From the UHGV virus genome UHGV-0144499: 46,145 bases of DNA; one strand, 5' to 3'. The stretch is from a virus. Both the position numbers and the translations under genes were made by a program. This document shows, piece by piece, positions 2,496-45,821 of the stretch (positions are counted from its first letter, which is position 1; the number at the start of each line of letters is the position of its first letter). Under the pieces are notes generated by a model. That model made no database searches. It was given only the letters and a program-made list of their open reading frames with translations, and had not been told where the DNA came from.

Positions 2496-3584
2496 ATGGA
2501 AAAGATTATCTTTACGAAAGGCTTAATCACCAATTCGCAGGTGGTTAAAGAGCAATGGCGTCACCTGACTGTTGACCGCAAGGTTTTCATCAATGGTGAA
2601 AACGCTCTGGCGAAAGAATACGGCGTGAACGCCACCGCGCTGGTAACGAAAGACTACTGGCGCGAAGTGGACGATGTGACCACCCGCGTGTTCCGCAACG
2701 AGTCCGGCATGGACATGATGGCCGACCTGATGACGCTGGCGACCAACATCAACATCGGTAAGACCGTGGCAATTAGCCGCATGGCCTCCGATGCTGGCAA
2801 GGTTGTGCGCACCATCTCCGGGCAGGAGCCTGAAGACCTGGATAAAACCCGCTATTCCTACAGCGGAGATGTAATCCCGATCTTCAAAACCGGTTATGGC
2901 CGCGAGTGGCGCGAGCTGATGGGTATGCAGTCTGAAGGTTTCGACCCGCTGATTGATGACCAGGAAAGCACCACCTTTAACCTGCGCGCAGACATGGCGG
3001 ATTATCTGCTGGTCGGCGATGCAAGCCTGAACGTGAACGGCGTTTATACTGCTTACGGCATCACCAACCACCCGAACACCGTGCAGCTCAACCTGGGTGC
3101 CTCCGGTACTGGCGCGCTGAACATCGACCTGCAAACTGCAACCCCTGATGAAATCGTTGAGTTCTTCAACCAGGGTTTCCAGGCGGTTCTGGACGCGCAG
3201 AACGTGTTCGAGCCGGTTACTCTGTGGGTTTCTCCGTCTGTGCGCCGCTCCTTCAGCCGCCCGTACTCCAACGCGGCAGGCTTCAAAGGCGGCACCATTG
3301 AGGATTATATCCTAGCATTCGGCAAAACCGGCAACGTTGGCCGCATCGCGTCTATCGGCACCAACTTCAAGCTGACCGGGAACCATTTCGTCGGCTACGT
3401 GAAGAATGCTCTGTATATCCGCCCTCGCGTCGCTCAGCCGGTATCCACCTATGCAGAGCCGCGTACCACGCCGCACGCTAACTTTAACTTCCTGACCTGG
3501 GCTGCTATGGGCCTGCAAATCCGTAAGGATTTCAATGGTCGAAGCAAAGTTTTCAACGGCTACGGCACGCAAACCGCGCTGTAA
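2496..3584 (+). CDS. major capsid protein (362 aa)
   Basis: Strong RBS AAGGAG 6 nt upstream; size, position after scaffold/decoration genes and strong terminator immediately downstream typical of MCP. Confidence 0.65.
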   Translation: MEKIIFTKGLITNSQVVKEQWRHLTVDRKVFINGENALAKEYGVNATALVTKDYWREVDDVTTRVFRNESGMDMMADLMTLATNINIGKTVAISRMASDAGKVVRTISGQEPEDLDKTRYSYSGDVIPIFKTGYGREWRELMGMQSEGFDPLIDDQESTTFNLRADMADYLLVGDASLNVNGVYTAYGITNHPNTVQLNLGASGTGALNIDLQTATPDEIVEFFNQGFQAVLDAQNVFEPVTLWVSPSVRRSFSRPYSNAAGFKGGTIEDYILAFGKTGNVGRIASIGTNFKLTGNHFVGYVKNALYIRPRVAQPVSTYAEPRTTPHANFNFLTWAAMGLQIRKDFNGRSKVFNGYGTQTAL

Positions 3585-3625: not shown

Positions 3626-4003
3626 ATGATGACCAGTAAAGGCATTGAGCAAGAAATTAAAGATAAAGGATTGACTGCTCCACGCGTTACTCTGGAGCAT
3701 ATTCATTCGATTATTGTTGGTGAGTATTACTTTACTGCATCAGATGGCGTGCAGCAGGCTTTCCACGAGCAGGATGAATTGACTCGGATGTGTGGGGCTC
3801 ATGATGAGTTGAAATTTCTTACCTTTTGCGTCTTGGTACTGAAAAACGGCTTCACCGTGACAGGAGAAAGCGCCTGCGCCAGTCCAGCTAATTTCAATGC
3901 CGAGATTGGTCGCAAGATTGCCAGAGAGAATGCGGTAAATAAAATATGGATGCTTGAGGGGTACCTCCTTAAGCAGAACCTTTCGGAGGTAAAAAATGGC
4001 TAA
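3626..4003 (+). CDS. hypothetical protein (125 aa)
   Basis: ORF with RBS, in head module. Confidence 0.5.
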   Translation: MMTSKGIEQEIKDKGLTAPRVTLEHIHSIIVGEYYFTASDGVQQAFHEQDELTRMCGAHDELKFLTFCVLVLKNGFTVTGESACASPANFNAEIGRKIARENAVNKIWMLEGYLLKQNLSEVKNG

Positions 4004-4305: not shown

Positions 4306-5052
4306 TTGGGGGCTGCATTGCAGGTGCAGATTGTGCCATTAAACTCTTCCGGCGGTCACGCACCATTAACAAGCGGCTCTGTTTCCGTAATGGTATCGCC
4401 GTTTGCATCTGGTGACTTCTGGGTTGACGTCAACAATAATAATTATTATGGCGTGGCATTGCGACTGAAAGTAATCAAGTCGCAGCTTCCTGCTGGCGTT
4501 GCATCCCTGAAAGTCCTGGTGTGGCGAGCTGATACCTCAGTGCCATCAAGCCAGGTTGTCGCGCAGTCCTACTCGGAGCTTGCCAACAAGCAGGGAAAGC
4601 TATTCACCGCATCGCGTCGCGTTACTGATGTCTCTGGTGGGTCTAACCTTGACAGCATTTTTATTACCGGCTCAAAACAGGTTGTGTTTAACCAGCGTAT
4701 CATCGGATACACCGGAAAAGGTGTCGTGGCGTCAATCTACCGTGGAGCTGTAGCCACTGGCGGCACCGCTGCGGAGATTAATAACCCAAATGATGTTGCT
4801 CCGCATACTGCAACAGCGCAGCTTCTGACTGGCTCTACGATTACAAGTATTGGGCAGCTGACGGTGGCTGCGACGTATAGTGAAGGGAACGCATCGAATC
4901 AGGGTCAGGGTAATTCGCAGGCAAAACTTGGTGAGCAGGTCATCATGGCGCCTAATACTACCTACCTGTTGCGTATCACATCGCTGGATACTGCGGCGCA
5001 AAATATCAATGCTTACGTTTCGTGGTTTGAGGATGACGCTTATCTTCCTTGA
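4306..5052 (+). CDS. hypothetical virion-associated protein (248 aa; non-ATG start or frameshifted N-terminus)
   Basis: Long Ser/Thr/Gly/Val-rich beta-type ORF; frame opens at 4288 with no ATG, TTG at 4306; a 36-codon ATG ORF (4232-4342) overlaps in the -1 frame across a TTGGGGG run. Confidence 0.45.
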   Translation: MGAALQVQIVPLNSSGGHAPLTSGSVSVMVSPFASGDFWVDVNNNNYYGVALRLKVIKSQLPAGVASLKVLVWRADTSVPSSQVVAQSYSELANKQGKLFTASRRVTDVSGGSNLDSIFITGSKQVVFNQRIIGYTGKGVVASIYRGAVATGGTAAEINNPNDVAPHTATAQLLTGSTITSIGQLTVAATYSEGNASNQGQGNSQAKLGEQVIMAPNTTYLLRITSLDTAAQNINAYVSWFEDDAYLP

Positions 5053-5086
5053 TAAAAGAAAAGCCCCGGCAGGGGCTTTGTTTATT
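5053..5086. terminator. bidirectional rho-independent terminator
   Basis: gcccc-ggca-ggggc hairpin flanked by A-run upstream and T-run downstream; sits between convergent genes ending 5052 (+) and 5082 (-). Confidence 0.55.
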
Positions 5087-5360
5087 GGCGTTCCTGTAAC
5101 TTATCACGAAGCTTACTTAAAGCATCAACCATAACCTTAACATGCCAAAGCTCCTCTTCCTCATAAGCTAGCTTATTCTTACCAATTGACGTCGTCACGC
5201 AAGTTGTGATTTTGTTTCTCATGATGTCGGAGAGCTTCAGCAACTGCCTTTCATCACCACATTGCAAAACCAAATCCACAAGCTCGGTATATTCCTTGTT
5301 GTGTTCTTCGTAACTTCCTTTAACCACTCCACAGCAAAGGCATCTTTTCATATCGGACAT
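5082..5360 (-). CDS. hypothetical Cys-rich protein (92 aa)
   Basis: ORF; CLCCG...C...QCG cysteine pattern suggests metal binding; last gene of reverse-oriented cassette. Confidence 0.5.
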   Translation of the reverse strand: MSDMKRCLCCGVVKGSYEEHNKEYTELVDLVLQCGDERQLLKLSDIMRNKITTCVTTSIGKNKLAYEEEELWHVKVMVDALSKLRDKLQERQ

Positions 5361-5386
5361 TTTCTAAATCCTCATTGGCATAACTG

Positions 5387-5560
5387 TTATTTTTTGTTCT
5401 TGATGTAATGCTGCTTTGCAATATACAGCATCTCATCAAATGATTTTCCGGTAACGCTTCTGCATTGTCGATAGTGTTGTAACGCAGCCTCTATGGCCGC
5501 GTTGTCGATGCCTGGCAGTTTTTCGCGCAGGTTTTTCTCTATGAATTGTTCGGGGTTCAT
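5387..5560 (-). CDS. hypothetical small protein (~57 aa)
   Basis: Hand-translated ORF MNPEQFIEKNLREKLPGIDNAAIEAAL...; below track cutoff. Confidence 0.35.
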   Translation of the reverse strand: MNPEQFIEKNLREKLPGIDNAAIEAALQHYRQCRSVTGKSFDEMLYIAKQHYIKNKK

Positions 5561-5646
5561 CTTTGCCGCCTAAATGAAATATTACTTCCACCTATTGCAA
5601 CGTAACGGAATTTTCCGCAACCTTTTTTAACTCTGCACTTTCTGTA

Positions 5647-5814
5647 TCAGTATCGTCGAATTTCATGGTATGCCTTTTCTGTTAAAAGGAATGTGAATCC
5701 TTTATCAATGGCGCCAGCAATCTCAATAACAGCTTTAGACATTTGATCAATAATGTCTTTGGTGCTCATCGAAGACCAATCAACGCCATTACCGCTATTG
5801 ATTAACCCTTTCAT
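5647..5814 (-). CDS. hypothetical small protein (55 aa)
   Basis: ATGA overlap with stop of the ParB-like gene (translational coupling); hand-translated. Confidence 0.35.
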   Translation of the reverse strand: MKGLINSGNGVDWSSMSTKDIIDQMSKAVIEIAGAIDKGFTFLLTEKAYHEIRRY

Positions 5815-6629
5815 CACAGCTTCTCCAGAATGGCTAACACTTCACTCAACTCAGCGGAAGGAAGGCGCAAAAATTCTTCTGTCTCCTGTGCCACATGGCC
5901 CTCAGCGACAACCATGTGATCTGCTTCTTTCAGCAACTGAATCAGGCGGTCAATCGGCTTAACTTTTTTGGCTTTGAGCGTTTTAGCCGTCACTTTATCC
6001 TTGCCCTGCGCTTTCGCTTCCTCAACGGCAGCATCAATAACGTTAACGGCATCATCGCCATGCTCGCGCGTCACTGCAACGGCGTTGGCATAGCTGATTT
6101 GGCCTGCATTGATGCGTTGCTTGATGGCATCAGGAACATCACCAAGTGACAGGTGCATCTGCACATCAGAAACTGAGCGGCCTACTTTTTTGGAGATTTC
6201 TTCATTCGTCCATCCGAACCCTTTGAGGCGCACATAAGCCTTTGCACGCTCAAGCGGGTCAAGCTGTTTGCCCTGACTGGATGACACCATGAAGGCGATT
6301 TTATCCGCTTCATCTCCGGTGAAATCTTTGCACTCAATGCGCGCAATTGGTACGCCGCGCTCAATGGCACGCAATGCGCCAAGGTAACGATGCTGACCGT
6401 CAAGAATCTTGATGCGCTTTCCGTCGGCATCAGGAATAACAGTTAACGCCGGGATTGGCTGGCCTGATTCCCAGCACTGCGCGAAGTACTCGACATGCTG
6501 CTCATCGGCTTCGCGGATGTTGTACCCCGGCTCAAGATAAAGCTGATCGACAGGAACCTGATAACCTTTGTTGACCACGATTCCGCCGCGAGTTTCTTTG
6601 TCTGAGTAAATTTTTCCGAGAGATGTCAT
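5814..6629 (-). CDS. ParB-like nuclease/CTPase-fold domain protein with HTH (271 aa)
   Basis: ParB N-terminal domain motif ILDGQHRYLGALRA (GxxRxxA arginine finger region) and downstream HTH; start set at ATG with AGGAA RBS (MTSLGKIY) rather than the RBS-less upstream ATG at 6665. Confidence 0.65.
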   Translation of the reverse strand: MTSLGKIYSDKETRGGIVVNKGYQVPVDQLYLEPGYNIREADEQHVEYFAQCWESGQPIPALTVIPDADGKRIKILDGQHRYLGALRAIERGVPIARIECKDFTGDEADKIAFMVSSSQGKQLDPLERAKAYVRLKGFGWTNEEISKKVGRSVSDVQMHLSLGDVPDAIKQRINAGQISYANAVAVTREHGDDAVNVIDAAVEEAKAQGKDKVTAKTLKAKKVKPIDRLIQLLKEADHMVVAEGHVAQETEEFLRLPSAELSEVLAILEKL

Positions 6630-6636
6630 CTTTTCC

Positions 6637-6753
6637 TCACTTTGATAAACAGATTGCGCTGGCAATGGCGAATCCGATAACGATTAATGCCAGCTTGATT
6701 TTGAACTTGTCCCACGCCTTCAGTTCTTCTTTTCGGATTTCGTGGCGAATCAT
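6637..6753 (-). CDS. small membrane ORF (38 aa)
   Basis: Hydrophobic core LALIVIGFAIASAI; its TGA overlaps the RBS of the ParB-like gene. Confidence 0.3.
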   Translation of the reverse strand: MIRHEIRKEELKAWDKFKIKLALIVIGFAIASAICLSK

Positions 6754-7031
6754 TTGGATTCTCCGAGTGCTTTTGCGATTGCGGCATGAGCCTTGCTCAA
6801 GGCAGCGGCATTCCTTTTTGTTGGCGTAGTGAAGACGATCAACATTTCCAGTGCTTCAAATAGTTCAGAAATAACCATATCGCGATGGCCAAGTTCTGCT
6901 GCAATATCAGTCTTGGTGAACAGACCCTCTCTAGTCATTGCTGACACATGTCGTGAATAAAATCCACCAACTTCATCTAAAGACTCAATGTCTCGTCTTG
7001 CGTATTCAAACTTAATGCTCATCTTCATCAC
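6750..7031 (-). CDS. hypothetical protein (93 aa)
   Basis: ORF in reverse cassette. Confidence 0.5.
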   Translation of the reverse strand: MMKMSIKFEYARRDIESLDEVGGFYSRHVSAMTREGLFTKTDIAAELGHRDMVISELFEALEMLIVFTTPTKRNAAALSKAHAAIAKALGESK

Positions 7032-7051
7032 CTATAACATTTTTCATTAAG

Positions 7052-7399
7052 CTACCACTGCTCCGCCCATGCGAAAAACGGCATTGGGGCATCGTAAGTT
7101 GTTGCATCTTCCATTGAATCCCACTCCGAGTAAATCCAGTTTCCTCGATTGTCAGCTCCAACCTCTATGACTTTGCCGTTTTTACAGGTTACTAAATTTG
7201 AATTTAATTGACCCCTCAGATACTTACCAAGTGGATAGAATGCAGAATTCTTCCCTGACTCATTAAATTCAGCAGACACCATTTCGGCCAATTCCTCACC
7301 GCGAACACTCCACATTGAGTGAATTGCAGGCTTAACAAATGAGCCGTGTTTTTCTTTCCAGTTTTCTACATATGCATCATATTGCTGGCGCTGGTTCAT
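7052..7399 (-). CDS. hypothetical protein (115 aa from MNQRQQY)
   Basis: ORF; start moved to ATG with GGTGGTGA RBS; first gene downstream of the cassette promoter. Confidence 0.5.
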   Translation of the reverse strand: MNQRQQYDAYVENWKEKHGSFVKPAIHSMWSVRGEELAEMVSAEFNESGKNSAFYPLGKYLRGQLNSNLVTCKNGKVIEVGADNRGNWIYSEWDSMEDATTYDAPMPFFAWAEQW

Positions 7400-7426
7400 T
7401 TTCACCACCCCTAACATTTATTGTTG

Positions 7427-7484
7427 TTTCTACGTCATCACTATAGCGACACCCTCAATCTACGTCAACACTTTATGATAAAAT
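7427..7484. promoter_or_regulatory. divergent promoter/operator region: tandem TCTACGTCA repeats; minus-direction TTGACG-17-CTATAG; plus-direction extended -10 TGATAAAAT
   Basis: Two copies of (T/A)TCTACGTCA(T/A)CAC 22 bp apart (7427-7440, 7455-7468); reverse strand reads TTGACGtagattgagggtgtcgcTATAG; plus strand TGATAAAAT at 7476-7484. Confidence 0.45.
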
Positions 7485-7629
7485 TAAACCAACAACACTC
7501 ACCCCGCGCTGTTCCGTCCTGAAAAACGTAAGGCGGCGAAATTGGATATAGCAATCGGCGTTATCGTCATAGCGTTTTTGCTGGTTCAGGTGTACAGATG
7601 CTGGAAGTTCATCATTCGGAGAATAATTA

Positions 7630-7917
7630 ATGAGAGACGCGCTTCAGCACGCCGCAAACCAGATAATTAGTGGCACTGTCAGCCAGGTAATCGACAAAGC
7701 CGGTTATACATCCATCGGCACGGGTCTTGGCCTGAAGGTGGCAGAGCAGACGCCAGTAGCACAATCATACATTGCCTCAATGATCCCCCATTCGATTACC
7801 GAGTGGGCGGCAGTAGCCTCTATACTTGGCGCGCTGTCACTGGTGGCAAAAAACCTTTTTGAGATGTGGTGGAAGATTCGGGAGAGCAAAAAGAATGGCA
7901 GCACCGACAGCAAGTGA
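7630..7917 (+). CDS. hypothetical membrane-associated protein (95 aa)
   Basis: ORF with hydrophobic segments; first gene of connector/neck operon. Confidence 0.5.
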   Translation: MRDALQHAANQIISGTVSQVIDKAGYTSIGTGLGLKVAEQTPVAQSYIASMIPHSITEWAAVASILGALSLVAKNLFEMWWKIRESKKNGSTDSK

Positions 7918-9707: not shown

Positions 9708-9798
9708 GTTGTGTTGTTGATTCGAATCTACACCACCAATCAAAACCTGTCAACATGATATAATGCGATTGTTTAGCTAAACACAGAGGATTCTAAAC

Positions 9799-10618: not shown

Positions 10619-10897
10619 TCAATGACCATCACCGCTATCCTCACTACTAATCGCTTCATCAAGTTGCCGTCGCAACATGCACAGCGCACCATGCGGCATA
10701 AACTGATTAGCCATGCCATCGAATATCTGGCGGTTTAATTTATTATCAATGCGCGGCCTTATTGCAGACCAGCATGACCTGATTGCACGATTTACTGGTC
10801 GGCGGTCCAGCATTGCGAGTCGTGCAGCTAACTCAATGGTCACAAGCGCATCAAGATACTGTTCGCAGGCATAGCGATTTTCGTTATCCATCATCAT
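10619..10897 (-). CDS. hypothetical protein (92 aa)
   Basis: ORF downstream of HNH gene in reverse cassette. Confidence 0.5.
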   Translation of the reverse strand: MMMDNENRYACEQYLDALVTIELAARLAMLDRRPVNRAIRSCWSAIRPRIDNKLNRQIFDGMANQFMPHGALCMLRRQLDEAISSEDSGDGH

Positions 10898-11379
10898 TTA
10901 CCATGGTTCTCATGAAAATCATACTTAACCTCCGCCTTTCTCCTTGCTTCAGCGGCCATATTTAAGTCAGAAAACAATCCAAGATGAATCTTTACGCCAT
11001 CAACTTTTATGTTTGAGGCCCATTTTTTATGTTGTTTATCCCATGAAACACCAGTAACACCTGATTTGTTTGTCACCCTGAACTTCATGTTGTGATTATT
11101 CTCTTTTGGAGTGACAAGCCTGAGGTTATCTATCTTATTGTTTGTTTTATTGTGGTCTATATGATCAATCTGCATTCCGTCAGGAATTTTCCCATTATGC
11201 ATTTCCCAGATGATGCGATGAACAAGATACTTGACGCCATAGATTCCAACAATCTTATATCCATTGCCTCCTACCGCCTTCACCTCGCTTCCGATTTTCA
11301 CTCTGTTTGAGGTTCTTATCTTCCAGTAAATAGCCCCATCACAATAATAAAAAATATCTGACCAATCAGTTATTTTCAT
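10894..11379 (-). CDS. HNH-AP2 homing endonuclease (161 aa)
   Basis: HNH_3 motif DHIDHNKTNNKIDNLRLVTPKENNHN followed by AP2 DNA-binding domain (VTGVSWDKQHKKWASNIKVDGVKIHLGLF); free-standing between tail-tube and chaperone genes. Confidence 0.75.
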   Translation of the reverse strand: MKITDWSDIFYYCDGAIYWKIRTSNRVKIGSEVKAVGGNGYKIVGIYGVKYLVHRIIWEMHNGKIPDGMQIDHIDHNKTNNKIDNLRLVTPKENNHNMKFRVTNKSGVTGVSWDKQHKKWASNIKVDGVKIHLGLFSDLNMAAEARRKAEVKYDFHENHGK

Positions 11380-11597: not shown

Positions 11598-12305
11598 ATG
11601 AGACAACGCACACCGCTAACAGAAATCGGAGAGATGCGCATCTCCCTGGCTGACAAGTCTTTTTTCTTCAAGCCATCATTTGCGGCGATGAATGATCTTG
11701 GTTCACCGAAAGAGATTGTCGAGCTGTACGCTACGCTTAATGGCTATGAATACGCGGCCATACTCGGCGCCATTCAGTCATTGCCATATGGCGCGCAGAT
11801 TCAGGTGGCAAAAATCCTGTCACGTCCTGCCTATGGCAAGAAAGTGCTCAGCGCCGCCTGTCTCATCATGCAATCCTGCTGCGATGATGATGTTTCGGTG
11901 CTCATTGGGTCATGGAAGCCGACTCTGCGCGGTGTGAAGTACATCACCGGAAGAATGCCAGTAAATGACATTATTATTATTGCTCGCAACCTGATGGAGC
12001 ATGGCATCATCGGCAAGTCTCCGCTCAAGGTTCCTCAGCGCTCGGAAAACCAAAAGCGTACAACCAGTGAGTTGAGAATGTCGGATTACATCATCTCAGC
12101 TCGCACCCATTTCGGAATCACCCGTGAGGAAGCCGAAGACCTGACCATGACCGAGTATCAGCAGATGATAAAATCAAAATACCCGGAACCGGAAGGCATG
12201 ACGCGCGAGCAGTATGATGCGTCTTATGAACGGGCCAAGCTGAATAAACAGAAACTGAAAGAGAAAGCCGCCAGAAAGGCCGCTAAAAGCAAAGGAGCAA
12301 AATAA
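11598..12305 (+). CDS. tail assembly chaperone (235 aa)
   Basis: Only gene between tail tube and tape measure; TAATG-coupled to TMP; Lys-rich C-terminus. Confidence 0.5.
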   Translation: MRQRTPLTEIGEMRISLADKSFFFKPSFAAMNDLGSPKEIVELYATLNGYEYAAILGAIQSLPYGAQIQVAKILSRPAYGKKVLSAACLIMQSCCDDDVSVLIGSWKPTLRGVKYITGRMPVNDIIIIARNLMEHGIIGKSPLKVPQRSENQKRTTSELRMSDYIISARTHFGITREEAEDLTMTEYQQMIKSKYPEPEGMTREQYDASYERAKLNKQKLKEKAARKAAKSKGAK

Positions 12306-15606: not shown

Positions 15607-15632
15607 ACCCCGCTATTGCGGGGTTATTTTGT
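15607..15632. terminator. bidirectional rho-independent terminator
   Basis: accccgc-tatt-gcggggt then TATTTTGT; stop codon of the minus-strand gene lies in the loop. Confidence 0.65.
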
Positions 15633-16503
15633 CTATCTCCATCATCAAGTCAGGAGTTCTAATCACCCACTCTGTACATCCATCAAAACCAGAAAGACCA
15701 GCCGATTTAAATTTGCTGTGAAAGTGCGACTCTATTTTTGCAGCATTAAATCCAGTTGTTTTTATCATCTTGATGACATTGAATTGGAATGGGGTATTTT
15801 TTGTTAATCTTCTAATCCTTTCAATTTTGTTGTGCGTGACGCCAATTTTAATCACCCCCAAAGACACAGACTCAAGGAAGTAAACATATGCTTTTTTTGT
15901 TGTTCTTTTGAATCCGTATTCTGCGCAATCCGGGCAACCCTGTCCATTAAGATGATTTGACGGTGCCTGCATGAAAACCCCATGCTCTTTGCAGGTGATG
16001 GCAACACTTTTGTTAGCTGATGTATAATCAACAAGAGAGTAATCATATTTGTTACCATGAACGGTGGCTGCTTTTATTACAAACTCTATAGTATTTGATC
16101 TGGTGCCTCCGCCGCAAAAATGACAACCGTGCCCAACCAGGTGCTTTTTCGGTGACTGCATGAAGTCACCGTGTATTCGGCAACAAATAACCATCTTATT
16201 AGATGTGTTTTTGTACGTATCTTTTTTATATGAATATCTTTCACCATGCACACTTATTGCTTTGCTAACGAAGTCATCGAAGGTCATCCTCCTTGAAGAC
16301 GTAACTATATCCCTAGCGCAATAATTACACCCAAATCCATACATGTGGTTAGATGGCGTTTGCTCAAAATCACCATGCATTGGACAGGTGATAATTACCT
16401 TTTCCTTTGAGTTAACGTACACGGATTTATCATAAATGTATTTGTCACCATGTACCGCTTTAGCTTTGGCAATAAATTCTTCGGTAGTTAGCTTGCGCAT
16501 CAT
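15613..16503 (-). CDS. T5orf172 (GIY-YIG-like) domain protein with three N-terminal Cys/His repeats; homing-endonuclease-like (296 aa)
   Basis: Three tandem ~45-aa repeats HG(D/E/N)KY.Y....................C..HG.F.Q.P..H..G.GC..C; C-terminal YVYFLESVSLGVIKIGVTHNKIERIRRL matches T5orf172/MUG113 core; inserted in reverse orientation between TMP and minor tail genes. Confidence 0.55.
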   Translation of the reverse strand: MMRKLTTEEFIAKAKAVHGDKYIYDKSVYVNSKEKVIITCPMHGDFEQTPSNHMYGFGCNYCARDIVTSSRRMTFDDFVSKAISVHGERYSYKKDTYKNTSNKMVICCRIHGDFMQSPKKHLVGHGCHFCGGGTRSNTIEFVIKAATVHGNKYDYSLVDYTSANKSVAITCKEHGVFMQAPSNHLNGQGCPDCAEYGFKRTTKKAYVYFLESVSLGVIKIGVTHNKIERIRRLTKNTPFQFNVIKMIKTTGFNAAKIESHFHSKFKSAGLSGFDGCTEWVIRTPDLMMEIDKITPQ

Positions 16504-34944: not shown

Positions 34945-35043
34945 CTGATTTATAATAATTAATGCGGCTAGGGGGCACCCGAAAAGCGACTCATCACCGC
35001 CTGCTGCATTCACTTCAATGATGCCCTGATGAGGAATCTATAT

Positions 35044-37563
35044 ATGGCACGCAAAAGACTGTCAGCACCAGCAATTGAAAAACTTGAAGAGATTATTGGC
35101 GATGGCGTGATTGATGCGCCTGAATCTGCGGTGTTCGGTGTTGTTAATACAGATAAGCAGATTGTTCGCAAACTCAAAATGACGCAAAGCGGAGTTGATG
35201 ACGTTAGCGACTCTGATATTGGCGTTGATCACCTGATACCAGAAAAGCTGGAAAAGCTACTTTACCCCAAGAGAAATAAGATTGTGTTTGGCGGGCGCGG
35301 ATGCTTAGCCATCGGCACGATGGTGAGGATGTTTGATGGTGGCCTAAAACGCGTAGAGGATATCGTTGTTGGCGATAAGGTTATGGGTCCAGACAGTAAG
35401 TCACGAAATGTTTTAAGCATCTGTCGTGGGTTTGATGACATGTACACGGTTCATCAAAAATATGCCGATAACTACACCGTCAACTCAAGTCACATACTGT
35501 CATTACGAAAGATTCCATCTGCTATCAGTGACGAGACAAAAACACCGGATGGTAAAAGAATTTATCGTTATTACCCAAATGAACCTGAAGTACTGAACAT
35601 CGGTGTTTCAGAATATTTATCGCGCGCAACTTCTAAAAAGTTCCGCCATGTCTTTAAAGGGTGGCGAACAGGGTGGGATTTTAATGAGCAGAGCGTTCCA
35701 GTTGACCCGTACTTCCTTGGTTTATGGTTAGGTGATGGCTCATCTCGTAGTGTTGAAGTATGCACGCCTGATCAAGAGATAGTTGACTACCTTCACAGCA
35801 TAGCAAACCAATACGGGATGCAATTAAAGGCTCGGGATAAAGACAGATGTCCTGTCTATGCGATAACTAATGGCCGAACTGCTGGCATGGGGGAAAACAC
35901 CAACCCGTTACTAACTAAAATGCAGCAGCTTGGGGTGATTAATAATAAACACATACCTGACTGCTATATCAAAAACAGCAGAGAGGTAAGACTTCAGATT
36001 CTGGCTGGGCTATTGGATACTGATTCGCATTACCACAAAGAAAAGAAAAGCTATTGTTTTACATCAATAAATAAAGATATAGCCTTCTCTTTGATGGATG
36101 TAGCAAGATCGCTTGGTTTCAAGTCAAGCATAATCAAAAAGACTGATGTCACCTTTGAGTATAAAGGCGAGAAAAGAATATACGAAAAGGATGTGTGGGA
36201 GGTGTTCGTTAGTGGTGACCTTCATACAATCCCATGCCGAGTAAAAAGGAAGATAGCAGAGAGAACCAAGTCAACTCGCGGGATGATGACTGAGGTGTCA
36301 TTGTCTTATGCCGGGCATGGTGAATACGCTGGGTTCACTCTTGATGGCGATCATCTTTTCTTGCTTGCTGACGGCACAGTTACACACAACAGCGGAAAAA
36401 CAAGAACAGTAACTACAATACTTACGGAGCGTGCACGTTTCAAACCTGACAGGATGGCTTGTTTTCGTGAGATTCAGCAGTCTATTGAGGATAGTTCATA
36501 TCAGGAACTGAAAGACGAGATTGACAGGAAGGGCGAGACAAAAGAGTTCCGCGTCATCAACAACGAAATAACGCACAAGGTAACGAAAGCAAAGTTCCGC
36601 TTTAAAGGGCTGTATCGCAACCAGACGACCGTAAAAGGCTTCGCTGGCATTACAGTAGCTTGGGTCGAGGAGGCGGAAAACGTCAGCCAGACAAGCTGGG
36701 AAATCCTCACCCCAACAGTCCGCGCTGAAGGGTCAGAGATATGGGTGACTTTCAACCCAAATAAAGAGCATGACCCGACGTGGAAAATATGGGTTGAGCC
36801 TTTTTATAATAAATTGCGCGAAAATGGCGGCATCTATGAGGATGATGAAAACCTGATTATCGAGTGTAATTACTCAGACAATCCGTGGTTCTGGGATACT
36901 CCGCTCCCAAGCCAAATGCAGCGCATGAAAGAAACCGACTTCGACCGCTATCAATGGGTGTGGGGTGGGCGCTTTAATAAGCGTAATGATGAGCAGGTAT
37001 TTGGCGGTAAGTGGCGCGTTGCTGATTTCGAGGTTAAGCCGGAATGGCATGGGCCTTACTTTGGCATCGACTTTGGATTCTCGCAGGACGCAACGGCGAT
37101 GGTTGAGGTTTACATTGAGAAACTTCCTGATGACCGCCGCAACCTTTACGTCGCGCGCGAATACGGCCGTGTAGGCCTTGAGATTACCGACACACCTACA
37201 GCGATGGAGCAATCATTCCCACTCTCCAGGAAGGCAAGATGGTATGGGGACTGCTCTCGGCCAGAAACAATCAGTCACATCAAACGCGCAGGATTTGATA
37301 TCCATCCATGCAATAAGTGGCCCGGGAGCGTGGAGGAGGGTGTAACCTGGCTCAGGGGTTGCGACAGCATCATCATTCATGACCGCTGCACACAGACTCA
37401 GGAAGAGTTCACTATGTACAGTTACAAGGTGGACAAGCTGACGGGTAACGTGCTCACAAATATTGTGGATGCGTGGAACCACTTCATTGACGCAATCAGA
37501 TATGCATGCAACGATCACATCGTACAGCGTGGCTCTGGATGGATTAGAAGGGGCAGGAGATGA
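35044..37563 (+). CDS. terminase large subunit, interrupted in-frame by an intein (extein about 476 aa)
   Basis: Walker A split as VFGGRG | intein | SGKTRTVT; Walker B ITVAWVEEAEN; C-terminal nuclease-type region; start at ATG with GAGGA RBS (MARKRLS). Confidence 0.85.
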   Translation: MARKRLSAPAIEKLEEIIGDGVIDAPESAVFGVVNTDKQIVRKLKMTQSGVDDVSDSDIGVDHLIPEKLEKLLYPKRNKIVFGGRGCLAIGTMVRMFDGGLKRVEDIVVGDKVMGPDSKSRNVLSICRGFDDMYTVHQKYADNYTVNSSHILSLRKIPSAISDETKTPDGKRIYRYYPNEPEVLNIGVSEYLSRATSKKFRHVFKGWRTGWDFNEQSVPVDPYFLGLWLGDGSSRSVEVCTPDQEIVDYLHSIANQYGMQLKARDKDRCPVYAITNGRTAGMGENTNPLLTKMQQLGVINNKHIPDCYIKNSREVRLQILAGLLDTDSHYHKEKKSYCFTSINKDIAFSLMDVARSLGFKSSIIKKTDVTFEYKGEKRIYEKDVWEVFVSGDLHTIPCRVKRKIAERTKSTRGMMTEVSLSYAGHGEYAGFTLDGDHLFLLADGTVTHNSGKTRTVTTILTERARFKPDRMACFREIQQSIEDSSYQELKDEIDRKGETKEFRVINNEITHKVTKAKFRFKGLYRNQTTVKGFAGITVAWVEEAENVSQTSWEILTPTVRAEGSEIWVTFNPNKEHDPTWKIWVEPFYNKLRENGGIYEDDENLIIECNYSDNPWFWDTPLPSQMQRMKETDFDRYQWVWGGRFNKRNDEQVFGGKWRVADFEVKPEWHGPYFGIDFGFSQDATAMVEVYIEKLPDDRRNLYVAREYGRVGLEITDTPTAMEQSFPLSRKARWYGDCSRPETISHIKRAGFDIHPCNKWPGSVEEGVTWLRGCDSIIIHDRCTQTQEEFTMYSYKVDKLTGNVLTNIVDAWNHFIDAIRYACNDHIVQRGSGWIRRGRR
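35302..36390 (+). mobile_element. intein with LAGLIDADG homing-endonuclease domain (363 aa) in the terminase P-loop
   Basis: Begins CLAIGT (block A), TVNSSH (block B), LGLWLGDGS and LAGLLDTDSHY (LAGLIDADG blocks), ends ...VTHN followed by extein Ser (block G); insertion precisely between GRG and SGKT of Walker A. Confidence 0.8.
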
Positions 37564-45128: not shown

Positions 45129-45361
45129 AACCAATGATGAATGATGAGAAATTACTAGGGTGTCCGTTTTGCGGTAGCGAAAATTCCATGCGGAACAAGG
45201 ATGGGCAATGGCATTTTGTAGTATGCCAGGATTGCGGCTGCCGTACTGATGACTGGATGGTTGCGGCGACAGCAATCATTAAATGGAATACCAGAAATGG
45301 CCACCTCTATACCGCTGACGACTACAAGCAAGATGCAATGGAGCGCGCAAATGGACTTTAA
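45113..45361 (+). CDS. zinc-ribbon protein (82 aa)
   Basis: CPFCGSEN...CQDCGC four-Cys ribbon. Confidence 0.5.
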   Translation: MGGEMKPMMNDEKLLGCPFCGSENSMRNKDGQWHFVVCQDCGCRTDDWMVAATAIIKWNTRNGHLYTADDYKQDAMERANGL

Positions 45362-45821
45362 AACGCAAATACTCACGGTGATAGAGCGCTGCGGCGGCGC
45401 AACCAATGCCATGATACGCAAGCAGACTGGCATGACAAACCGAGCCAGCGTTACAGGCTATCTGATTGAGCTGGAGAGCATGGGATTTATTATTAAGGAG
45501 GAAAGCGTCAGCTATGGCAGGCGCTGCTTTAAGTATTTCCTCAATCCAGATAATACCGCGCTTGACCTGGCAATTCAGGCCTATCTTGAGGCGAATCCGG
45601 GACGCAAGAGCAAGCAGATAGCAGAGGCTGTAGGCGTCAATTACACCATTCTCAAGGCACGCATGCGCTATCTGGCAAGCATTGGTCAGGTTGACCGTGA
45701 AATGCTTCCCGGCGGTGCATGGAAATATTACTGGCAGGAGATCATCCCGTTTGGCATGAGCCGTGACAGGATGATGTTTGAAAAGCTGCTTGCCGGGGCA
45801 CGTCAGTCATGTGGGCGGTAA
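45351..45821 (+). CDS. putative winged-helix DNA-binding protein (156 aa)
   Basis: Two HTH-like segments; start chosen at ATG 45351 with GGAGCG RBS. Confidence 0.4.
   Translation: MDFKTQILTVIERCGGATNAMIRKQTGMTNRASVTGYLIELESMGFIIKEESVSYGRRCFKYFLNPDNTALDLAIQAYLEANPGRKSKQIAEAVGVNYTILKARMRYLASIGQVDREMLPGGAWKYYWQEIIPFGMSRDRMMFEKLLAGARQSCGR

Follow-up and report, generated by a model that had tools for sequence, protein, structure and literature searches.

The window analysed here is the whole stretch of UHGV virus genome UHGV-0144499 (46,145 bp), a nearly complete genome of a lytic Klebsiella siphophage. Inside its structural region lies a minus-strand operon (5082-7399), hereafter the cassette, bounded by a bidirectional terminator and a sigma-70-type promoter, and centred on a gene for a 271-aa orphan ParB/KorB-like protein, hereafter the ParB-like protein. 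The phage belongs to the Skatevirus/Roufvirus group (siphophage genomes of ~46 kb), which the BASEL paper treats as a single cluster of small siphoviruses of 46-48 kb, and its relatives are lytic by description. Over the cassette region, identity is 98% with vB_KpnS_SCNJ1-C, and 93-95% with KP591P1, BUCT610, MK54, KlebP_265 and Aeromonas phage pIS4-A, assigned to genus Roufvirus in the BASEL paper. Proteins of the window are ~80% identical to those of Skatevirus phages, which infect Salmonella and E. coli.

An original prediction, made from the sequence alone, had described a reverse-oriented accessory cassette of seven tightly coupled genes, driven by a motif promoter, closed by a bidirectional terminator and interrupting the head-to-neck gene order. 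Its outline was recovered: the seven minus-strand open reading frames (ORFs) were found at the same coordinates, structural genes stand on either side, all on the + strand, and an accessory operon in reverse orientation inside the structural region is supported. Some points needed correction. Seven ORFs do exist, but one is a pseudogene-like truncation and another a recent insertion. Tight coupling holds for the overlaps at 6750/6753 (ATGA) and 5814 (TGATG), but the remaining junctions are gapped by 7-26 nt. The terminator, placed by the prediction at 5053-5086, corresponds to a G+C-rich hairpin with U-tracts on both strands (folding energies of -16.0 and -13.7 kcal/mol, z = -2.56 and -2.75), which closes both the + strand head operon and the minus-strand cassette. 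An Rfam scan of the window gave no match inside the cassette, and comparison of PADLOC defence models with all seven cassette proteins gave none either. Coordinates are summarized in Table 1.

Table 1. Features of the minus-strand cassette and of its surroundings in the window (RBS, ribosome-binding site).
Feature	Position	Strand	Remarks
Bidirectional intrinsic terminator	5060-5079	both	8-bp stem, 5 G-C pairs, 4-nt loop, T-runs on each strand
Cys-rich 92-aa protein	5082-5360	-	ORF; terminal variable slot
57-aa protein	5387-5560	-	phrog_4439, E = 6e-17
55-aa ORF	5647-5814	-	Coupled to ParB-like gene via TGATG; truncated copy of 85-aa gene
Orphan ParB/KorB-like protein, 271 aa	5814-6629	-	
38-aa protein	6637-6753	-	Hydrophobic C-terminal segment ...LALIVIGFAIASAICLSK; overlaps upstream gene by 4 nt (ATGA)
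90-aa protein (93 aa from GTG 7031)	6750-7022	-	phrog_34533; C-terminal part phrog_1273
Leader/RBS copy 2	7024..7042	-	Marks downstream boundary of near-ORFan insertion
115-aa promoter-proximal near-ORFan	7052-7399	-	Insertion specific to window phage
Leader/RBS copy 1, AAATGTTAGGGGTGGTGAA	7401..7419	-	Directly 5' of near-ORFan ATG 7399; conserved in relatives
Promoter element	7428..7468	-	TTGACGTAGATTGA supplies -35, 17-nt spacer and TATAGT; second motif copy TGACGTAGAA 30 nt downstream, at ~+1
Cassette promoter TTGACG-17-TATAGT	7468..7440	-	Matches 10/12 consensus positions
TTGAYGTAGATTGA motif copies	7428, 7458, 11532, 26013, 29064, 32708, 37918, 42404, 42428, 44573		
Major capsid protein	2496-3584	+	Upstream flank
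N4 gp49/Sf6 gp66-family protein	3626-4003	+	Upstream flank
phrog_5335 protein	4234/4306-5052	+	Upstream flank
Membrane protein (95 aa), DUF7370 protein, neck genes		+	Downstream flank

The ParB-like protein is a genuine member of the ParB/KorB/Noc family. Hidden Markov model (HMM) profiles and an AlphaFold2 (AF2) model together retrieve the architecture of partition ParBs. A ParB/Srx N-domain (residues ~22-120) and a helix-turn-helix (HTH, ~125-205) are followed, after a linker rich in Lys, by a C-terminal domain (225-270) of alpha-beta-beta-alpha fold, predicted to be of the dimerisation type. The phrog_1033 profile matches over the full length (E = 3.7e-86, residues 12-282 of the 283-aa form of the ORF starting at TTG 6665), and Pfam gave HTH_ParB (PF17762, E = 2e-10, 41.2 bits for a cutoff of 22.6) and KorB (PF08535, 24.2 bits, cutoff 22.3). 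No match to PF02195 was obtained at E<=0.1, and the NCBIfam models TIGR00180 parB_part (41.6 bits, cutoff 58.45), TIGR04285 Noc (32.1 bits, far under the cutoff of 315) and TIGR03187 (DndB/DGQHR domain, 17.7 bits, cutoff 58.85, E = 0.0023, residues 73-118 only) stayed below threshold. By sequence, the closest PDB entries are those of Spo0J, ParB, Noc and KorB, HMM alignments with Spo0J/ParB spanning residues 25-200. With the AF2 model (predicted local distance difference test, pLDDT, of 84), the top Foldseek matches were ParB, KorB and Noc (template modelling (TM) score by target up to 0.75), and the best superpositions were on open DNA-bound forms, namely Caulobacter ParB and KorB-KorA.

The protein is 98-99% identical to those of close Klebsiella phages and ~81% identical to those of Skatevirus; 316 phage records match it at E<=1e-5, 192 of them near-full-length at at least 80% identity. 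Profiles, model and ORF scans agree with the proposal of a lone ParB-like protein having an N-domain and an HTH but no ParA: no ParA, integrase or repressor module was found among the larger ORFs of the window (20 were scanned for ParA/CbiA-type proteins), nor in the annotated complete genomes of KlebP_265 and Skate, and no telomerase module is present. The gene is already annotated in RefSeq and PHROGs ('ParB-like partition protein'), and orphan phage ParBs are a recognised, uncharacterised class. The prediction had likewise called such lone proteins functionally uncharacterised, and indeed no experimental function for the PHROG 1033 family was found in the literature searched; the paper on KlebP_265 leaves its ParB and methylase genes unmentioned.

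The nucleotide pocket departs from that of canonical ParBs. The conserved arginine patch, for which the original prediction had quoted ILDGQHRYLGALRA as though it were the canonical motif, is largely lost. Box II (GERRxR) reads GQHRYL (G78-Q-H-R81-Y-L-G), so that the GxxR core and one of three arginines are kept, and the catalytic Glu is replaced by Gln or His. Box III (ENLQR) reads SSSQG, its Asn being lost, and Box I (QPR) probably corresponds to N37-I-R39, with a one-residue offset in the HMM alignment. Among homologues, G35, N37, R39, G78 and R81 are invariant down to 26% identity. The distant members MD8 and mEp390 still read GHRRRR at Box II, so that the arginine patch was eroded within the present subclade. 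A recent survey of the fold (PMC12704722) defines Box II as GxxR, reports frequent loss of Box III among orphan ParBs, states that the ParB/Srx fold can bind cytidine triphosphate (CTP), ATP or GTP, and warns that neither sequence nor AlphaFold3 reliably predicts nucleotide specificity. Because the pocket residues (N37-x-R39 and G78-x-x-R81) are kept and the catalytic Glu and Box III Asn are lost, nucleotide binding appears possible, and canonical CTP hydrolysis unlikely.

The motif promoter that had been proposed to drive the cassette is real and statistically supported. The sequence TGACGTAG is present in 7 copies in the window, for 0.58 expected and 0 shuffles reaching 7, and the wider class TGAYGTAGA(T/A), i.e. 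TTGAYGTAGATTGA, in 10 copies for 1.4 expected. Most copies directly precede transcription units, some of them doubled 24-30 nt apart. Besides the cassette, these units are a second cassette in reverse orientation, within the tail region (11532), an exonuclease/AAA/SSB operon (26013), a helicase operon (29064) and small-gene units (32708, 37918, 42404/42428 and 44573), about seven to nine in all. The cassette is therefore not the singular oddity it had seemed to be, but one of roughly seven to nine units with a common promoter motif. Equivalent units are marked in KlebP_265 (9 copies) and Skate (12 copies). The geometry varies, some units being better suited to TTGACG (TTGAYG) as a -35 and others to TAGATT as a -10. 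Since the motif also precedes replication and recombination operons, we read the cassette as early, i.e. as a probable part of an early regulon whose promoter class is common to replication and recombination genes.

The position of the cassette was the same in every relative examined, and its content is modular (12 loci). The original prediction had set against itself a cassette syntenic in all relatives and having a structural role; synteny was found in every relative examined, but nothing indicates a structural role. The ParB-like gene is the anchor, kept in most relatives and usually accompanied by the 57-aa phrog_4439 gene. The slot starting at its stop codon is occupied by a DNA methyltransferase of phrog_363 in KlebP_265 and in Bas79, by a C-specific methylase in BUCT541, by the 85-aa ORF or an extra small ORF in KP591P1, SCNJ1-C and Tbat1_6, and by a 120-aa ORF in KFS-SE2. 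Judging by annotations, several other relatives may have a methyltransferase in this slot; one is listed under or next to the cassette in Bas77, ZCEC08, VLCpiS13f, RSU-F4K5 and HC6. The terminal slot contains RusA, endonuclease VII or small ORFs in relatives, and the promoter-proximal one an anti-restriction protein (phrog_14587) in Skateviruses. Such neighbours may lend some context to the host-takeover, anti-defence and DNA-modification roles that had been put forward. Close PHROG 1033 members (KP591P1, BUCT610, MK54, pIS4-A, KFS-SE2 and Bas79) have the same length, slot and neighbours, and only the cargo of the window cassette differs. Distant homologues sit elsewhere: in the early-left accessory region of mEp390, among regulatory and accessory genes in MD8, in a nin-like region between replication genes and the Q antiterminator in Pantoea lambdoid prophages, and among small genes preceding the head genes in another siphophage. 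A ParA was never found beside any of these (Pantoea prophage, mEp390, MD8, other siphophage).

The remaining cassette genes illustrate this variability. The 115-aa near-ORFan had no tblastn match in 50,697 phage records, and 17 matches at E<=1e-3 among 1.84 billion representative proteins, 2 of them close. Positions 6788-7394 of the window are absent from every relative compared. The ORF is flanked by a duplicated leader/RBS of 19-24 nt (direct repeat of 24 nt, 83% identity, 7019-7042 versus 7396-7419; 2 leader matches for 0.03 expected), so that it was likely inserted by recombination at the leader. No function could be proposed for its product, which has no phage homologue and only marginal relatives. 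The next gene, first of the cassette in relatives, has a 5' part that differs from every relative compared; its start is more likely ATG 7022 (90 aa) than GTG 7031 (93 aa), because the conserved leader AAATGTTAnnGGTGnTGAA / AAATGTTATAGGTGATGAAG precedes this ATG, and KlebP_265 has a matching leader and start. Directly 5' of the ParB-like gene, and conserved there in the Klebsiella clade, the 38-aa protein is probably a small tail-anchored membrane protein, and a 117-nt gene is annotated at its position in five relatives.

Downstream of the ParB-like gene, the 55-aa ORF ends at a CGA to TGA nonsense mutation, which SCNJ1-C, KP591P1 and Tbat1_6 do not have, reading through into an annotated 258-nt gene. 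The dead 3' part of the 85-aa gene extends to ~5556, and the 86-nt gap at 5561-5646 exists because of this truncation. No PHROG family was retrieved for this gene. The 57-aa phrog_4439 protein was found in 144 phage records, all of the Skatevirus/Roufvirus-type group, usually downstream of the ParB-like gene; its model (pLDDT 77) shows a three-helix bundle, for which no structural match was obtained at E<=0.001. The 92-aa protein matches 16 phage records and is identical only in SCNJ1-C; four records of Kagunavirus-type E. coli phages label homologues at ~60% identity 'zinc finger protein', and no significant Pfam, PHROG, NCBIfam or PADLOC family was retrieved for it.

We propose, at about even confidence, that the cassette represents an accessory operon of the early class, located at a recombination hot-spot, and that its anchor is a DNA-bound regulator or organiser of the ParB/KorB family without a partition role. 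The fixed hot-spot between head and neck genes would hold an early-class operon, most likely transcribed by the host RNA polymerase from a TTGAYGTAGATTGA-class promoter and stopping at the shared bidirectional terminator. It consists of a semi-conserved core, the ParB-like gene usually together with the phrog_4439 gene, and of three exchangeable slots, which in the window are occupied by the near-ORFan (promoter-proximal), the truncated 85-aa gene (coupled to the ParB stop) and the Cys-rich 92-aa protein (terminal). The ParB-like protein would act early and bound to DNA, like KorB, Noc or HerB, tuning transcription or DNA transactions.

Among known systems, KorB of RK2 (8qa8, 8qa9, 1r71) offers one model. 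It is a ParB-family CTP-dependent sliding clamp and a global repressor capable of long-range silencing (PMC11790492). It shares with the ParB-like protein an N-domain and HTH, a Pfam KorB match over the cutoff, and the status of an orphan-style regulator on a mobile element; the best whole-model superposition is on the KorB-KorA-DNA complex (TM score by target 0.69). However, the CTP pocket of KorB is canonical, and its system includes twelve palindromic OB operators, the partner KorA and the ParA-type protein IncC, whereas the ParB-like protein lacks the catalytic Glu and Box III, and no repeated palindrome, KorA-like partner or ParA was found for it. The 57-aa protein, considered as a KorA-like partner, is a doubtful candidate: its three-helix fold is generic and without structural match, and its gene is deleted in clones of phage seszw (see below) that retain ParB. 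Chromosomal ParB/Spo0J and Noc share the same domain order, including the C-terminal domain (1vz0, E = 4e-11, or 1e-15 with the family profile; 6t1f, 7bnk, 7nfu), but in the window no ParA gene, ParA-binding peptide, parS or canonical Box II/III was found.

Several observations weigh against our proposal. A first set concerns the need for the protein. The natural isolate VLCpiS13a is without ParB residues 1 to ~223, and VLCpiS13d has lost ParB past residue 25, together with the remainder of the cassette and the greater part of the phrog_5335 gene. In the Macdonaldcampvirus-type phages ST44 and KE13, an HTH protein and an HNH endonuclease take the place of ParB. ParB is thus not essential, and some Klebsiella isolates can do without it. 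The deletion of VLCpiS13d corresponds to 4412-6555 of the window; as it removes most of the phrog_5335 gene, this gene too is dispensable for plaque formation. On the other side, a CRISPR-driven genome reduction of Skatevirus seszw, in which 53/81 genes were removable (PMC9825161), produced minimised clones down to 37.4 kb in which, for those examined, genes on either side were lost, and ParB and the gene upstream of it were kept; of the two clones inspected, one has a full-length ParB and the other a 254-aa form. The mutants P0039 and P0040 have, instead of knock-outs, in-frame deletions of 15 residues (45 nt) in ParB, which fall either behind the recognition helix (162-176) or within the N-domain (55-69) and look like CRISPR escape alleles preserving the reading frame. 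ParB seems therefore dispensable for plaque formation, yet kept under selection in at least one host (the Salmonella system), with the reservation that the authors did not target every gene, so that its retention may partly reflect the choice of targets.

A second set concerns regulation. Early timing is deduced from promoter class only. Moreover, a 190-aa protein encoded at 45249-45821 (+), with a weak winged-helix match (HTH_24, 22.0 bits for a cutoff of 21.9), could be the regulator of the phage and the reader of the motif. As for TTGAYGTAGATTGA itself, it was an attractive candidate for a ParB operator, with two copies 30 nt apart (at the -35 and at ~+1) at the cassette promoter, and it was rejected as specific evidence: the double motif, also present in Skatevirus and KlebP_265, is kept in ParB-less phages (ST44, KE13 and the deletion isolates VLCpiS13a and VLCpiS13d), and the motif is missing from the loci of a Pantoea prophage (L020) and of a different siphophage (L024), in which the ParB recognition helix, RSV(S/A)DV.xHL, is nearly unchanged. 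TTGAYGTAGATTGA is the sole promoter-associated repeat, and it is not palindromic, unlike the multi-copy palindromic operators of KorB type.

A third set concerns the DNA target. No recurring palindrome or parS-like repeat was found in the window, a single degenerate site being possible. Palindromes conserved between the window and Skate are only terminators, sites in coding sequence or single-copy sites. None is common to the window and distant ParB-carrying loci beyond chance or codon preference, the distant phages and prophages being compared over 6-13 kb each. Large intergenic gaps beside distant homologues (Pantoea prophage, ep3 and MD8) contained no convincing repeat family of the parS-like array type. 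A cis-site inside the ParB gene, suggested by a 21-nt stretch identical with distant homologues and by 13-mer repeats (6330, 6367), was discarded as well: the identity is explained by preferred codons for the invariant RIECKDF, and KFS-SE2 uses other codons. The OB-/parS-like palindromes TGTTTAGCTAAACA (9770) and CTAAACCGGTTTAG (33102) are single-copy, and their near matches unconvincing.

Some of these palindromes deserve a description of their own. TGTTTAGCTAAACA is a perfect 14-bp palindrome (9756-9783), ~5 nt downstream of an extended -10, TGATATAAT, and ~15 nt before the major tail gene. Placed at the +1 of the major-tail promoter, it is also conserved in VLCpiS13a, KP591P1 and KlebP_265, and could be the operator of a late promoter. 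GAGATGCGCATCTC, a perfect palindrome at 11631-11644 (18 bp with one mismatch), is single-copy and identical in KlebP_265 and Skate; it lies 33 nt inside a gene that carries a tail assembly chaperone annotation in KlebP_265, and adjoins the divergent promoter of the second reverse cassette. The adjacent perfect palindromes GTTGACGTCAAC and ATAATAATTATTAT (4423-4449), inside the phrog_5335 gene, encode VDVNNNNYY and may merely reflect coding sequence.

The failure to find any candidate site on phage DNA modestly favours, for the ParB-like protein, a target that is host-side or of low specificity. This leads to the alternative of a host takeover of HerB type, in which the protein would bind the bacterial nucleoid early and reprogram or silence host transcription, an idea we hold as possible, though rather unlikely. 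HerB/YfjB, an early-induced orphan ParB-like protein from the leading region of the F plasmid that binds the host chromosome, provides the precedent for a host-directed protein of this kind (PMC13370423). Both are orphans with an HTH and no partition role, and HerB is among the first proteins made on entry of the mobile element, beside anti-restriction-type genes, just as the cassette, early by promoter class, is a unit beside anti-restriction and other takeover-type genes. The near-constant recognition helix, in genomes unlike the window outside the head-gene module and without a DNA motif in common with it, also fits this alternative. However, HerB, which was shown to bind host DNA, is larger (632 aa), has the extra domains D3 and D4 (D4 being a dimerisation module) and binds CTP-gamma-S at a canonical pocket, whereas the 271-aa ParB-like protein has only the ParB core and a short C-terminal domain, without the four-domain architecture. 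Phage-borne sites may moreover lie beyond the 6-13 kb compared of each distant phage or prophage.

Another explanation, slightly more doubtful, is that of a cofactor for DNA modification or repair: the ParB-like protein would load on DNA and recruit or activate the enzyme of the stop-coupled slot, or RusA/endonuclease VII. The methyltransferases starting at the ParB stop codon in KlebP_265, BUCT541 and Bas79, and those annotated under or beside the cassette in the five relatives named above, speak for it, as do conserved N-domain residues suggesting a working pocket. Phage ParB-fold proteins are tied to DNA-modifying enzymes elsewhere, ParB-methyltransferase fusions being enriched in phages (PMC12704722), and ParB176 activating the thymine dioxygenase 5mYOX176 on dsDNA (PMC13229309). 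Yet these are either without a DNA-binding domain, in the case of the 5mYOX-associated ParBs, or fused to the enzyme, whereas the ParB-like protein is separate and has an HTH. In addition, no methyltransferase or other modification enzyme is present in the window cassette, nor was a methyltransferase found among the larger ORFs scanned, most of the relatives examined have small, unrelated ORFs in the ParB-coupled slot, the minimised seszw clones retain ParB though downstream genes are gone, and BASEL Skateviruses are reported to be markedly sensitive to restriction-modification systems.

We consider it improbable that the protein is an enzyme rather than a switch, with a divergent N-domain (DGQHR, H45, E99-C100-x-D102) that would act catalytically, as a nuclease or otherwise, on host or phage DNA. 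In favour of such a function stand the clade-invariant His, Asp, Glu and Cys around the pocket and the weak match to the DGQHR-domain model TIGR03187, and some ParB/Srx-fold proteins are indeed enzymes (Osa, sulfiredoxin and SerK; PMC12704722, PMC13370423). But that match is far under its cutoff, residues such as H45 and D102 are not kept in the wider family (only G35, N37, R39, G78 and R81 are), H80 is an Arg in MD8 and mEp390, and the full architecture with HTH and C-terminal domain is that of a DNA-binding ParB. Finally, partition or centromere binding, e.g. to maintain the phage genome in a carrier state, as a plasmid-like episome served by the ParA of a host or plasmid, is very improbable despite sequence and fold similarity to Spo0J/ParB and the partition label in RefSeq and PHROG, given the lack of ParA in the larger ORFs of the window and in annotated relatives, of parS-like repeats in the window, of integrase, repressor or telomerase module in a group described as lytic, and of the ParA-interaction motif (L/F/I)G(K/R)G(L/F/I) (PMC12704722), the N-terminus MTSLGKIYSDK reading LGKI without the second Gly and G5 not being conserved, and given the TIGR00180 score below its cutoff.

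A DNA-bound regulator or organiser is compatible with both the host-directed and the cofactor explanations. In a more specific scheme, which we find tentative and on the whole unlikely, the ParB-like protein, with GxxR kept and the catalytic Glu lost, would be a hydrolysis-deficient, nucleotide-gated DNA clamp, serving early silencing or re-organisation of the host nucleoid or long-range control of the phage's own interleaved early and late operons, and the stop-coupled slot would deliver exchangeable enzymes, e.g. methyltransferases, to this DNA-bound platform.

Other features were noted around the cassette and in the rest of the window. On the downstream flank, the DUF7370 protein is a head-to-tail adaptor by annotation in KlebP_265. 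A 42-aa ORF with a TTG start and a hydrophobic segment (7542-7670, +) is situated in the divergent region that precedes the neck operon, where it overlaps the beginning of the gene for the 95-aa membrane protein; Skate has a 39-aa gene annotated at this position. The second reverse cassette, in the tail module, includes an HNH_3 homing-endonuclease-type gene (10894-11379, -), and a free-standing gene of homing-endonuclease type, T5orf172/MUG113 (GIY-YIG-like) with treble-clef zinc fingers, is found in the tail module at 15613-16503 (-). TerL (35029-37563, +) is 844 aa long, for ~474 aa in relatives, and appears to carry an intein: residues ~92-375 contain a Hint domain (PF05203) and LAGLIDADG homing-endonuclease domains (PF05204, PF14528), C-terminal of which lie Terminase_3 (454-648) and Terminase_3C (681-828). 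Immediately upstream, at 34961-35024 (+), an Rfam match to the int-alpA small RNA (37.4 bits for a gathering score of 35.8) stands in a context unusual for int-alpA.

With its one pseudogene and one ORFan, the window cassette represents a typical variant of a module that had been annotated before, and the locus is a clear positional hot-spot for the swapping of early accessory genes. Non-partition roles have lately been shown for orphan ParB-fold proteins on mobile elements (KorB, HerB, dioxygenase activators), and the present family is common in enterobacterial phages; it may have been missed by the 2025 fold survey, since that survey used PF02195 and TIGR00180, whose thresholds the family does not reach. 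Tractable lytic phages (BASEL Bas77-81 and seszw) already offer natural knock-outs and genome-minimised derivatives, and make a practical system for studying the role of a ParB fold without a canonical CTPase site in a virulent phage. If true, the nucleotide-gated clamp would be a ParB-fold function not yet described for lytic phages.

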